A stretch of 7,496 nt of DNA from a virus (taxonomy: Duplodnaviria > Heunggongvirae > Uroviricota > Caudoviricetes), in IMG/VR virus record IMGVR_UViG_2660238126_000008; one strand, written 5' to 3'. The position numbers and the translations under genes were made by a program. A model generated the notes under the pieces. The model had not been told where the DNA came from, searched no databases, and was given only the letters and a program-made list of their open reading frames with translations. Positions 331 through 7,496 of this stretch are shown here, piece by piece (positions within the stretch are counted from its first letter, which is position 1; each line of letters opens with the position of its first letter).

Positions 331-905
331 TGGCATTCAGAATGAGTGAACAACCACGGACCATAAAAATTTATAATCTGCTGGCCGGAACTAATGAATT
401 TATTGGTGAAGGTGACGCATATATTCCGCCTCATACAGGTCTGCCAGCAAACAGTACCGATATTGCACCGCCAGATATTCCGGCAGGCTTCGTGGCTGTT
501 TTCAACAGTGATGAGGCATCGTGGCATCTCGTTGAAGATCATCGGGGAAAAACCGTCTATGACGTGGCTTCCGGCGACGCGTTATTTATTTCTGAACTCG
601 GTCCGTTACCGGAAAATGTTACCTGGTTATCGCCGGGAGGGGAATATCAGAAGTGGAACGGCACAGCCTGGGTGAAGGATACGGAAGCAGAAAAACTGTT
701 CCGGATCCGGGAGGCGGAAGAAACAAAAAACAACCTGATGCAGGTAGCCAGTGAGCATATTGCGCCGCTTCAGGATGCTGCAGATCTGGAAATTGCAACG
801 GAGGAAGAAATCTCGTTGCTGGAAGCATGGAAAAAGTATCGGGTATTGCTGAACCGTGTTGATACGTCAACTGCACAGGATATTGAATGGCCAGCACTGC
901 CGTAG
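330..905 (+). CDS. tfaR: Tail fiber assembly protein (Tfa family)
   Basis: 191-aa ORF whose ATG overlaps the upstream stop (TAATG at 328-332). The protein ends ...[17 protein letters not shown], a typical Tfa/gpG-like C-terminus, and lies immediately 3' of the tail fiber gene. Confidence 0.85.
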
Positions 906-2267: not shown

Positions 2268-2722
2268 CATGACTAAAAATGCTGAATATGATAAGGAGAG
2301 ATGTGATTATCAGTATGCTGTTCATATAGCCTCGAATTAGTAATGTGTTATATATGATATAGTTGACAATTTTTATCTTGGGTGTTCTTAAAGTTCGTAG
2401 ATAAACATTGTCGTTTCAGGTATACAGGAATGCTAACAGGTGGCAGCAAAAATCAGGCGGTTTATGGCGCAAGCTGAAGCGGCAACTGCAAACTATCTTA
2501 TGCAGAGACTCTACACAGATTGGGTTTAAAAGTATACATAGATAACAGTTTTTATCTGAAGAAGAAAAATATCAAGGTGATATAGCCTATATGCCTATGA
2601 TGCGGAGGAATGAATGTGATGGGAGTGATGTATCTGAATAGTTGAAAAACCGCAGTCACGTCGTATGCAAGAACGTGCTGCGGTTGGTTTGACTTTGATT
2701 GAGACGTTTTGGAATTTTTTTT

Positions 2723-2775
2723 GTGGCAAAAATGGGGCAAAACGCTGCAAAAGGGGCAAAAAAGGGGCAAAAAAA
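2723..2775. repeat. Array of about five phased G-rich/A-tract units (GGGGCAAAA-like, period ~10-11 bp)
   Basis: Sequence reads gtggcaaaaa / tggggcaaaa / cgctgcaaaa / ggggcaaaaaa / ggggcaaaaaaa. A-tracts recurring at roughly one helical turn are the classic signature of intrinsically curved DNA. Confidence 0.7.
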
Positions 2776-3068
2776 GAGTGGATTATCGTAGTTTATTGTT
2801 CTCGCTGATGATGTTTAACACATTGAAAAATAAGTAAAACACTTATGAGTCAGATAGTTGTGATTTTTGCCCTTACTTGTTCAGGTTGTATTGTTCTTTC
2901 TTACTAATTTCTTGATTTTGCGACATTTAAAAGCGACTCAATTCGTTATATGGCATCAGAAGAGTATGCGTCATGCCGGAACGCCCAGCATAAGAAATCT
3001 GATATAAAAACTGTGGCGTGTATGGTACGGATTAGAGGGGAAAATGTCAGCACATTTGCGAAATGAAT

Positions 3069-5942: not shown

Positions 5943-7290
5943 ATGAACACCACACTGACACCCGCAGATCTCGATCCCCGTCGGCAGGCCATGCTGCTGT
6001 ACTTTCAGGGATACCGCGTAGCCCGCATTGCTGAAATGCTGGGCGAGAAAGTTGCAACCGTTCACAGCTGGAAGAAACGCGACAAGTGGGGTGACTATGG
6101 GCCGCTGGATCAGATGCAGCTCACCACCGCCGCACGTTACTGCCAGCTCATTATGAAGGAGCACAAAGAAGGGAAAGATTTCAAAGAAATTGACCTGCTG
6201 GCGCGCCAGTCGGAGCGCCACGCGCGGATCGGCAAGTTTAACAATGGCGGCAACGAAGCCGACTTAAACCCTAACGTCGCCAACCGCAACAAAGGCCCGC
6301 GCCGTCAGCCGGAAAAGAATGTTTTCACCGATGAACAGATAGAGAAACTGGAAGAAATCTTCCATTCCTCCATGTTCAACTACCAGCGCCACTGGTGGGA
6401 AGCCGGAAAAACCAACCGCATCCGCAACCTGCTGAAGTCACGCCAGATCGGCGCGACCTTTTACTTTGCCCGTGAAGCCCTGATTGACGCCCTGCTTACC
6501 GGACGTAACCAGATTTTCCTTTCTGCCAGTAAGGCACAGGCTCACGTCTTTAAGCAGTACATCATCGACTTCGCCAAAGAAGTCGAGGTGGAGCTGAAAG
6601 GCGATCCGATGGTGCTTCCTAACGGGGCCACGCTTTACTTCCTCGGCACCAATGCCCGCACGGCGCAGAGTTACCACGGCAACCTGTATCTGGATGAATA
6701 TTTCTGGATACCGAAATTCCAGGAGTTGCGCAAAGTGGCTTCCGGTATGGCTATTCACAAGAAATGGCGACAAACCTATTTTTCCACGCCATCCAGCCTG
6801 ACCCACAGTGCTTATCCGTTCTGGTCCGGTGCGCTGTTCAACCGTGGACGCAACAAAGCTGACAAGGTGGACATCGACCTGTCCCACAGCAATCTGGCCC
6901 CCGGCCTGCTGTGCGCAGACGGGCAATACCGCCAGATAGTCACCGTGGAAGATGCGGTGCGCGGCGGCTGTAACCTGTTCGACCTCGACCAGCTGCGCAT
7001 GGAGTACAGCCCGGACGAATACCAGAACCTGCTGATGTGCGAGTTCGTGGACGATCTCGCGTCCGTGTTCCCGCTCAGCGAACTGCAGGCGTGCATGGTG
7101 GACAGCTGGGAAGTCTGGACCGACTTTCATGCACTGGCCCTGCGCCCGTTTGGCTGGCGCGAAGTGTGGATCGGTTATGACCCGGCAAAAGGTACGCAGA
7201 ACGGCGACAGTGCCGGATGCGTGGTGGTGGCTCCGCCAGCCGTGCCGGGTGGTAAGTTCCGCATTCTTGAGCGTCACCAGTGGCGCGNGA
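5943..7290 (+). CDS. P2-family terminase large (ATPase) subunit (gpP-like), 3'-truncated at the N cluster
   Basis: About 449 codons from the ATG at 5943-5945, with a Walker-A-like SRQIGATFYF and a Walker-B-like NLYLDEYFWIP. Divergent from the scaffold gene as P is from O in P2. The reading frame stays open to the window end only because of N bases; recognisable terminase sequence stops near ...ILERHQWR (~7287). Confidence 0.82.
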
Positions 7291-7299
7291 TGNNCNNCN
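7288..7299. other. Cluster of six ambiguous bases (N at 7288, 7293, 7294, 7296, 7297, 7299) at the terminase/purL breakpoint
   Basis: Read directly from the sequence (gcgngatgnncnncnt). Two further N bases occur at 7473 and 7477. Confidence 0.95.
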
Positions 7300-7301
7300 T
7301 C

Positions 7302-7496
7302 ACGCACTTCCACGCGCCCTTCACCATGAGAGACAGCAATCGGCATTTGCGAGCCCACCATCCCCTGCAACAGCAGCGACGGGCTTTGGGTCACTTCAAC
7401 CAGGCTGAAACGCGCTTCAAAGCGATCGGAGGTATTGCGCACAAAACGTGGCCACAACTCACTACCTGGGATNATTNGAGAATCGCCGGCAGGTGA
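7302..7496 (-). CDS. purL: Internal fragment of phosphoribosylformylglycinamidine synthase (PurL), glutaminase-domain region; partial at both ends
   Basis: Minus-strand translation from the window end reads ...[57 protein letters not shown], with the amidotransferase HGEGR motif, matching my recollection of E. coli PurL near its C-terminus. The M of ORF 6438..7457 is a TTG codon inside this fragment. Below ~7300 that ORF is just the antisense of the terminase gene. Confidence 0.6.

Follow-up and report, generated by a model that had tools for sequence, protein, structure and literature searches.

The short repeat array at positions 2723–2775 of a Rac-type prophage sequence is probably the P-arm cluster of arm-type sites for the prophage integrase, IntR. 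Positions refer throughout to the window, the whole 7,496-nucleotide stretch of DNA that was analyzed (IMG/VR record IMGVR_UViG_2660238126_000008). We read the array as two pairs of GGGGCA hexamers plus one degenerate unit and give this reading a probability of about 0.8. The conserved element is the G-rich half of each repeat unit, not the A-tract that follows it. GGGGCA pairs with hexamers 11 bp apart were found on both att arms of all IntR-family phages examined, and we therefore regard them as a likely signature of integrase arm-type sites. The predicted DNA curvature of the array is an accessory, lineage-specific extra to these sites. That IntR binds the array, that recombination needs it, and what the two pairs each contribute, we infer from these comparisons.

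Sequence, phasing and curvature of the array

The predicted outer arm-type pair of the P arm (2723..2743, + strand) consists of GTGGCAAAAAT and GGGGCAAAAC, and the predicted inner pair (2753..2775, + strand) of GGGGCAAAAAA and GGGGCAAAAAAA. The hexamers are 11 bp apart in each pair, and the inner pair starts 30 bp past the start of the outer pair. The middle unit between them, GCTGCAAAA (2744..2752, + strand), is degenerate, lies 10 bp past unit 2 and 9 bp ahead of unit 4, and is probably a spacer or a weak site. A TTTGCAA resembling it comes after the corresponding pair at the other prophage end. Unit 1 (GTGGCA) and the middle unit (GCTGCA) both deviate from the GGGGCA consensus, so the count of functional sites is uncertain.

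The C of the GCA in the five units falls at 2727, 2738, 2748, 2757 and 2768, giving unit-to-unit spacings of 11, 10, 9 and 11 bp. The five phased G-rich/A-tract units named in the preliminary description are therefore present, recurring every 9–11 bp. The A-tracts start at 2728, 2739, 2749, 2758 and 2769 and are 5, 4, 4, 6 and 7 bases long. Tandem Repeats Finder reports the array with a period of 11, 4.8 copies and a score of 52. With at most one mismatch, GGGGCAAAA occurs seven times in the window versus 2.7 expected, and four of the seven are co-oriented, phased copies of the array. On the two strands of the 7.5-kb window together there are four exact copies of GGGGCA, and the array holds three of these. 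The pattern is real and beyond chance.

We predicted DNA curvature using our own wedge-model script with Bolshoy/Trifonov and AA-wedge parameters. Under both parameter sets the array is the curvature maximum of the window, and none of 200 in-place shuffles reached its curvature. Intrinsically curved DNA calls for at least four A-tracts of 4–7 bases phased at ~10.5 bp, with predicted curvature above background, and the array fits this pattern, in keeping with the strong curvature proposed for it in the preliminary description. A T8 tract beside the array (2715..2722, + strand) raises the predicted curvature further. This tract is indel-prone (T8 here, T7CG in K-12) and lies outside the conserved arm.

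Together with the AT-rich context, this curvature speaks for another explanation. The array may function mainly as curved A-tract DNA, either as a structural element or as a nucleation site for H-NS or another nucleoid protein at the prophage edge, silencing or modulating excision or transcription without sequence-specific integrase binding. We consider this possible but doubtful, for reasons given below.

Position of the array within attR

In the window, a Rac-type prophage comes to its right end and gives way to uspF, ompN and nifJ/ydbK. The nifJ/ydbK coding sequence contains eight ambiguous bases (N), scattered over 7288–7477 close to the window's right edge. Prophage-free E. coli genomes align to the window only from 2877 onward and have an intact ttcA annotated there, which places the prophage boundary at 2876/2877. 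The K-12 annotation, converted to window coordinates with an offset of 1432083, places the end of Rac at the ttcC pseudogene. A right boundary near the array had been expected from the outset, and the array does lie just inside it, in phage-derived DNA 100–150 bp into the Rac prophage and to the left of the core. It is therefore part of an arm of attR in the lysogen and of the P arm of attP once the prophage has excised.

Comparison of attL (K-12, L003) with attR revealed a 26-bp att core, the crossover region, at 2877..2902 (+ strand). It reads TTGTTCAGGTTGTATTGTTCTTTCTT at both ends, contains no GGGGCA, and is annotated as attB/attP in the Rac-SA53 record. The ttcC pseudogene (2875–2925, − strand) is the displaced original 5′ end of ttcA on the B′ side of attR. 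Within ttcC, on the bacterial side, 2905–2917 match the IHF consensus exactly (TAATTTCTTGATT). On the phage side, the part of the P arm that separates the predicted arm sites from the core (2776..2876, + strand) holds an IHF-like candidate, TAACACATTGAAA, at 2816–2828. It matches YAANNNNTTGATW at 12 of 13 positions, is kept in O157 and has a similar counterpart in 933W. An inverted AGGGCAAAA at 2865–2873, abutting the core, was also considered. It is not conserved in O157, and we take it as a chance occurrence.

The surroundings of the array had been described as gene-free and AT-rich. The stretch is indeed AT-rich (GC 0.32–0.46), but it is gene-free only roughly, as ynaM (2212–2325) lies in the same spacer and the ttcC pseudogene is also present. 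Just outside the att arm we observed a hairpin followed by a U-run (2645–2685, − strand; −20 kcal/mol, z = −5.2). About 45 bp of this hairpin are 91–98% identical in HK97, mEp460, HK106, 2H10 and other lambdoid phages. The hairpin is likely a terminator that shields the prophage cargo from transcription coming in across att. Our terminator scan did not report it, probably because its loop exceeds the 8-nt limit of the scan.

Conservation among prophages at ttcA

We compared four prophages that occupy ttcA and carry unlike cargo: Rac, SPF_0923 (sitABC), Rac-SA53 and O157 CP-933R (effector genes). Immediately upstream of the array (2660–2722), three unrelated prophages share only 38–49% identity with the window, versus 98% in K-12 Rac. 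Identity rises to 91–100% across the array itself (2723–2775) and falls to as low as 69% (O157) over the rest of the arm (2776–2876). The homology border among ttcA prophages thus coincides exactly with unit 1, and the conserved att arm reaches outward no further than this unit. In K-12, whose Rac attR had been suggested for comparison, the array is identical.

Both GGGGCA hexamers of the inner pair are invariant in five of five aligned arms from ttcA prophages. The middle unit varies, reading GCCGCA in O157 CP-933R and differing in Rac-SA53 as well. The A-tracts and the predicted curvature are kept among the E. coli ttcA prophages. The P arm was found in 1857 of 5426 complete E. coli genomes, so the array is not missing from related genomes, an outcome that would have spoken against its significance in the preliminary description.

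The other prophage end and the IntR integrase

At attL of K-12, ATGGGGCAAATTGGGGGCAAACTTTGCAAC stands between the ttcA start codon and the intR stop codon. The pair it holds, GGGGCAAATTG GGGGCAAAC (L003:1474–1493), has two GGGGCA hexamers 11 bp apart. This P′ pair has the same orientation as the array and lies 49 bp from the core. In the reconstructed Rac attP, 198 bp separate the start of the inner P pair from that of the P′ pair. The short P′ arm of Rac carries the motif with no phased A-tract run, which argues against curved DNA as the main function of the repeats.

IntR contains both a catalytic domain and an N-terminal Arm-DNA-bind_2 domain (PF12167; residues 5–69, E = 3.9e-26), and it is accompanied by a DUF1233-type excisionase. 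This N-terminal domain, also known as DUF3596, has been described as the arm-binding domain of the integrase subgroup IntBPP-1, whose phage members, including those of an Stx2a phage and Gifsy-2, were termed putative integrases (Smyshlyaev et al. 2021, PMC8138268). A sequence search of the PDB with IntR returned catalytic domains only (Tn1549-type Int and XerA) and no arm-domain structure. The preliminary description had proposed that the array could be a platform for a protein linked to recombination, and predicted IntR arm sites would be such a platform, given the motif on both arms and the arm-binding domain of the integrase.

The motif across the IntR family

We then examined phages with related integrases. 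Beside IntR homologues of 68–71% identity at ttcA in Enterobacter, Erwinia, Hafnia and Citrobacter, a GGGGCA-N5-GGGGCA pair abuts the int stop codon. The pair is also found at the int stop beside homologues of 49–52% identity that use another host gene in Enterobacter and Pantoea. The sequence flanking the pair differs across both groups. A search of IMG/VR with an Int alignment gave mostly prophage fragments that end at the int stop or contain host ttcA, and the far arm was absent from these.

We therefore turned to attP sites that are contiguous in the sequence record. These came from 933W, an Stx1 phage, HannyBb, CharmingMan, CobraSix, IdasGreatGrand and Klebsiella KPP5665-2, with integrases 42–44% identical to IntR, and from Aeromonas pAEv1818, with an integrase 35% identical. 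Enterobacter phages are thus represented beside those of Klebsiella and Aeromonas. All eight have GGGGCA pairs on both arms and cores other than that of Rac. In an unbiased survey of the family att regions, the top shared repeated hexamer was GGGGCA on the strand opposite int, with 22 copies observed in the att zone versus 1.1 expected (P ~ 5e-21). The hexamers inside a pair are invariably 11 bp apart. The starts of the inner P pair and the P′ pair are 207–211 bp apart in the relatives versus 198 bp in Rac, which is one helical turn fewer. The motif follows the integrase family, not the core, attB or cargo, as it is kept beside unrelated cargo and whether the core is that of ttcA, wrbA-type or another.

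Exactly 2 + 2 sites are present in five of the eight att regions that we compared, a number that would give each protomer of an Int tetramer its own site. P-arm pairs are duplicated in Rac, 933W and CharmingMan. A 31-bp unit with one GGGGCA pair is present in three copies in 933W and in two in the Stx1-converting phage, where the record labels the units merely as "repeat_region, region III." The att regions of these two Stx phages (933W L083 versus L166), nearly identical in other respects, thus differ in their number of predicted arm sites.

The A-tracts do not show this conservation. The spacers between the hexamers in relatives are CTATT, TGGAT, TATAT, CGTCT or TTTTT, and neither A-tracts nor curvature are conserved across the integrase family. 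The non-A spacers indicate that the A-tracts are a feature of the Rac/ttcA lineage. Predicted curvature of the P array is the locus maximum in four of eight members (Rac, 933W, CharmingMan and pAEv1818). It is marginal in HannyBb and is not the maximum in KPP5665-2, CobraSix or IdasGreatGrand. If the repeats served mainly to curve the DNA, the A-tracts would be expected to be the constant element, but what is constant across the family is GGGGCA at 11-bp spacing.

Some more distant phages have the same layout with other letters. In phiCTX (L171, Y13918.1), whose Int is 31% identical to IntR, TGGGAAC pairs take the place of the GGGGCA pairs. They are likewise 11 bp apart and flank both sides of a tRNA-like core, about 300 nt downstream of int. 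Pseudomonas phage KT1, with 28% identity to IntR, has AGGGCA pairs.

A separate conserved element, GCTCTTGG(A/G)CGATCTTTGTC, was observed about 60–100 nt from the P′ pair in L083 (933W), L167, L168, L169 and L085. Its carriers are non-Rac family members with differing integration sites. The Rac counterpart, TTCTCGCTGATGATGTTT at ~2799–2816, is weak. This element is a candidate excisionase site or core-proximal site.

Scan of IMG/VR for the paired motif

We also scanned IMG/VR for exact GGGGCA-N5-GGGGCAAA, which returned at least 119 stretches; the matches listed are not a random sample. Among the 119 stretches listed, 70 encode a tyrosine integrase. Among the matches listed in the integrase-bearing stretches, 70 of 77 lie within −120 to +450 nt of the int 3′ end, and 63 of the listed matches near the int 3′ end sit on the strand opposite int, as in Rac. 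Among the matches listed, 19 integrases are merely 23–31% identical to the IntR set. Several of these are Firmicutes-type, with N-termini beginning MWIEELPNGKYKF and no Pfam match to an arm-binding (AB) domain.

Pairs on both arms were found in L273, which has a Firmicutes-type integrase, and in L216, which has 56% GC and lies beside a tRNA gene. The pairs at L273:11800–12180, L241:7480–7900, L216:4380–4820 and L240:12080–12317 lie beside phage integrases 24–28% identical to IntR. In these four stretches they often lie on both sides of a putative core, about 207–215 bp apart. The GGGGCA pair motif may thus be common to several integrase subgroups and phyla.

Candidate ligands of the array

The preliminary description had suggested a recombination-directionality factor as one possible ligand. 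It is improbable, in our judgment, that the repeats are sites for the excisionase XisR comparable to lambda X1/X1.5/X2 or the P2 cox boxes. An arrangement of tandem direct repeats on the attR side, in the P arm, is typical of excisionase sites, and beyond the DUF1233-type excisionase of IntR itself, genes annotated as excisionase adjoin int in the family phages examined. However, in a single EMSA experiment His-tagged XisR shifted the AttR fragment (294 bp) and left AttM (291 bp) unshifted (Liu et al. 2015). We mapped the primers from Table S2 of that study on K-12, which places AttR at ~2709–3001 and AttM at ~2587–2876. Both fragments include the whole array. As AttM was not shifted, the array alone is not an XisR site in that assay. 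Furthermore, the motif is present on the P′ arm abutting int as well, and the 2 + 2 copies of minimal members fit an Int tetramer.

XisR bound solely the fragment that contains the core and the bacterial side, with ttcC and the old ttcA promoter region, and not the one with the complete P arm. Excisionase sites are normally found in the P arm, which makes this binding pattern unusual.

Kasho et al. 2021 reported an IHF peak at attL and none at attR; the attL peak falls on a consensus situated between core and P′ pair. The lack of an IHF peak at attR would suit an array whose role is mainly structural, since an intrinsic bend could replace a protein-induced one.

As to H-NS, the ynaE/uspF spacer contains an H-NS-associated "promoter island," 1432784_339, whose H-NS mark comes from the Oshima data set. 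We mapped the island to ~2677–3016 using a genome-version offset. The same spacer is flagged HNS in RpoD genomic SELEX tables, and H-NS was reported to control Rac excision (Hong 2010, as cited in Liu et al. 2015). These observations would fit a curved nucleation site for H-NS, but the H-NS data are too coarse in resolution to single out the array. Nucleoid-protein binding at the array, as raised in the preliminary description, is possible, and H-NS could be an additional or competing ligand beside IntR.

Promoters, small genes and RNAs near the array

It is very improbable that the array belongs to a small gene or noncoding RNA, or that it serves as an UP element or other upstream promoter element. 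Phased A-tracts are able to serve as UP elements, and the region has been called a promoter island. However, a scan of both strands showed no sigma-70-like site adjacent to the array, and the upstream promoter element suggested earlier is thus not supported. The sole nearby match is at 3050–3022 (− strand), upstream of ttcC. This sigma-70-like CTGACA-17-TACCAT corresponds to the promoter given to "ynaE*" by Shimada et al. 2014. By its position, it would be the orphaned native ttcA promoter, which in the lysogen would drive only the 51-nt ttcC stub and read into attR.

Some RefSeq/PGAP annotations, including that of BL21(DE3), place a hypothetical CDS, WP_001157925.1, across the array (2665–2808, + strand). 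We judge this call to be spurious because it begins in DNA specific to Rac, beyond the conserved block, and because its frame is broken by homopolymer indels. The earlier statement that no ORF explains the array is therefore still accurate. A structured RNA was considered as well, but neither strand of the array folds better than shuffled sequences (z = −0.5 and +1.0). An Rfam search of the whole window at gathering thresholds gave no match at the array. Its one match was to IS009 at 673–871 (+ strand; 220.9 bits, full length), within the tfaR tail-fibre-assembly gene.

A model for the proposed IntR arm sites

In our proposed model, IntR would be a heterobivalent tyrosine recombinase whose N-terminal arm-binding domain engages the array and the pair beside the intR stop codon, with its C-terminal domains acting on the 26-bp core at 2877–2902. 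Folding of the arms would allow an Int tetramer to span arm sites and core sites at once, in the manner of the lambda attP and attR intasomes. The bend could be supplied by IHF on the P′ side and by intrinsic A-tract curvature, possibly together with IHF, on the P side. As long as the prophage is integrated, the array would be the attR arm needed for excision, and after excision it would form the P arm of attP.

Phage lambda is the closest familiar system. Both lambda Int and IntR are heterobivalent integrases with an N-terminal arm-binding domain. Like lambda attP, with its P1, P2 and P′1–P′3 sites, Rac has sites in both arms, from tens to about 150 bp from the core, and neighboring sites are 10–11 bp apart. 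An IHF site lies between the core and the P′ sites in both, and the IHF position at Rac attL corresponds to the lambda-like H′ layout. The excisionase gene is beside int and the int-proximal arm is short in the two phages alike.

There are also clear differences. Rac has the GGGGCA motif and the AB domain PF12167, while lambda has another motif, (C/A)AGTCACTAT, and an AB domain of another Pfam family, PF09003. The lambda P2 site is inverted. The predicted sites of Rac are all direct and paired, with the pairs duplicated in Rac and 933W. As all copies in the array are in direct orientation, the intasome geometry may differ from that of lambda. Unlike lambda, Rac has its core within the 5′ end of a protein gene, ttcA.

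Intrinsically curved DNA is also relevant here, as Goodman and Nash are said to have found in 1989 that it can functionally replace the IHF-induced bend in lambda attP. The Rac P arm likewise joins arm sites to strong A-tract curvature, and its attR lacks an IHF peak. However, the predicted curvature in Rac is inside the arm-site cluster, not between the arm sites and the core, and it is not kept in all relatives.

A similar motif has been noted in Enterococcus phage phiEf11, whose attP has direct repeats on both sides, AAAGGGGCAAA on the P arm and AAAGGGGCA on the P′ arm, that were put forward from sequence alone as integrase-binding (Stevens et al. 2025, PMC12540744). We find the same pair motif beside Firmicutes-type integrases that are 24–28% identical to IntR. 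phiEf11 differs from Rac in host phylum, core (ffs) and integrase subgroup, and the paper uses a generic "GGGC" consensus, with neither the paired 11-bp format nor family-wide conservation (PMC12540744).

In the literature we searched, mostly outside subscription journals, no arm sites are described for Rac or 933W-type integrases, and no arm-site binding by IntR or a 933W-type Int is described either. In concept the finding is unsurprising, since an integrase that is heterobivalent would be expected to have arm sites. What is new is most likely the mapping of such sites for an integrase family in which we found no earlier mapping; the kind of site is itself well known.

Implications for Rac and related phages

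About one in three complete E. coli genomes has Rac or a relative at ttcA, and the IntR family also mobilizes Shiga-toxin phages, such as 933W and Stx1 phages. Arm-type sites would explain why otherwise unrelated prophages share exactly the same ~155-bp end and why Stx phages differ in the copy number of the 31-bp "repeat region." The predicted sites provide precise targets for the study of excision and integration by IntR, XisR, IHF and H-NS.

A broader scheme can be put forward tentatively, although we think it somewhat unlikely as a whole. GGGGCA-N5-GGGGCA on both arms, ~200–210 bp apart, might be a shared arm-site code of a broad clade of AB-domain integrases, comprising IntBPP-1/DUF3596 members (Stx-phage and Rac) and Firmicutes phage integrases less than 30% identical to IntR. 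The Rac spacers would then have evolved into phased A-tracts, making a self-bending arm that replaces the IHF bend and draws H-NS, which would explain the H-NS control of Rac excision. If true, this code would make attP arms and prophage ends predictable from sequence alone. For the IntR family itself, the paired motif offers a simple sequence signature for finding attP arms and prophage boundaries, and should aid annotation of the integration modules of Rac and Stx phages.
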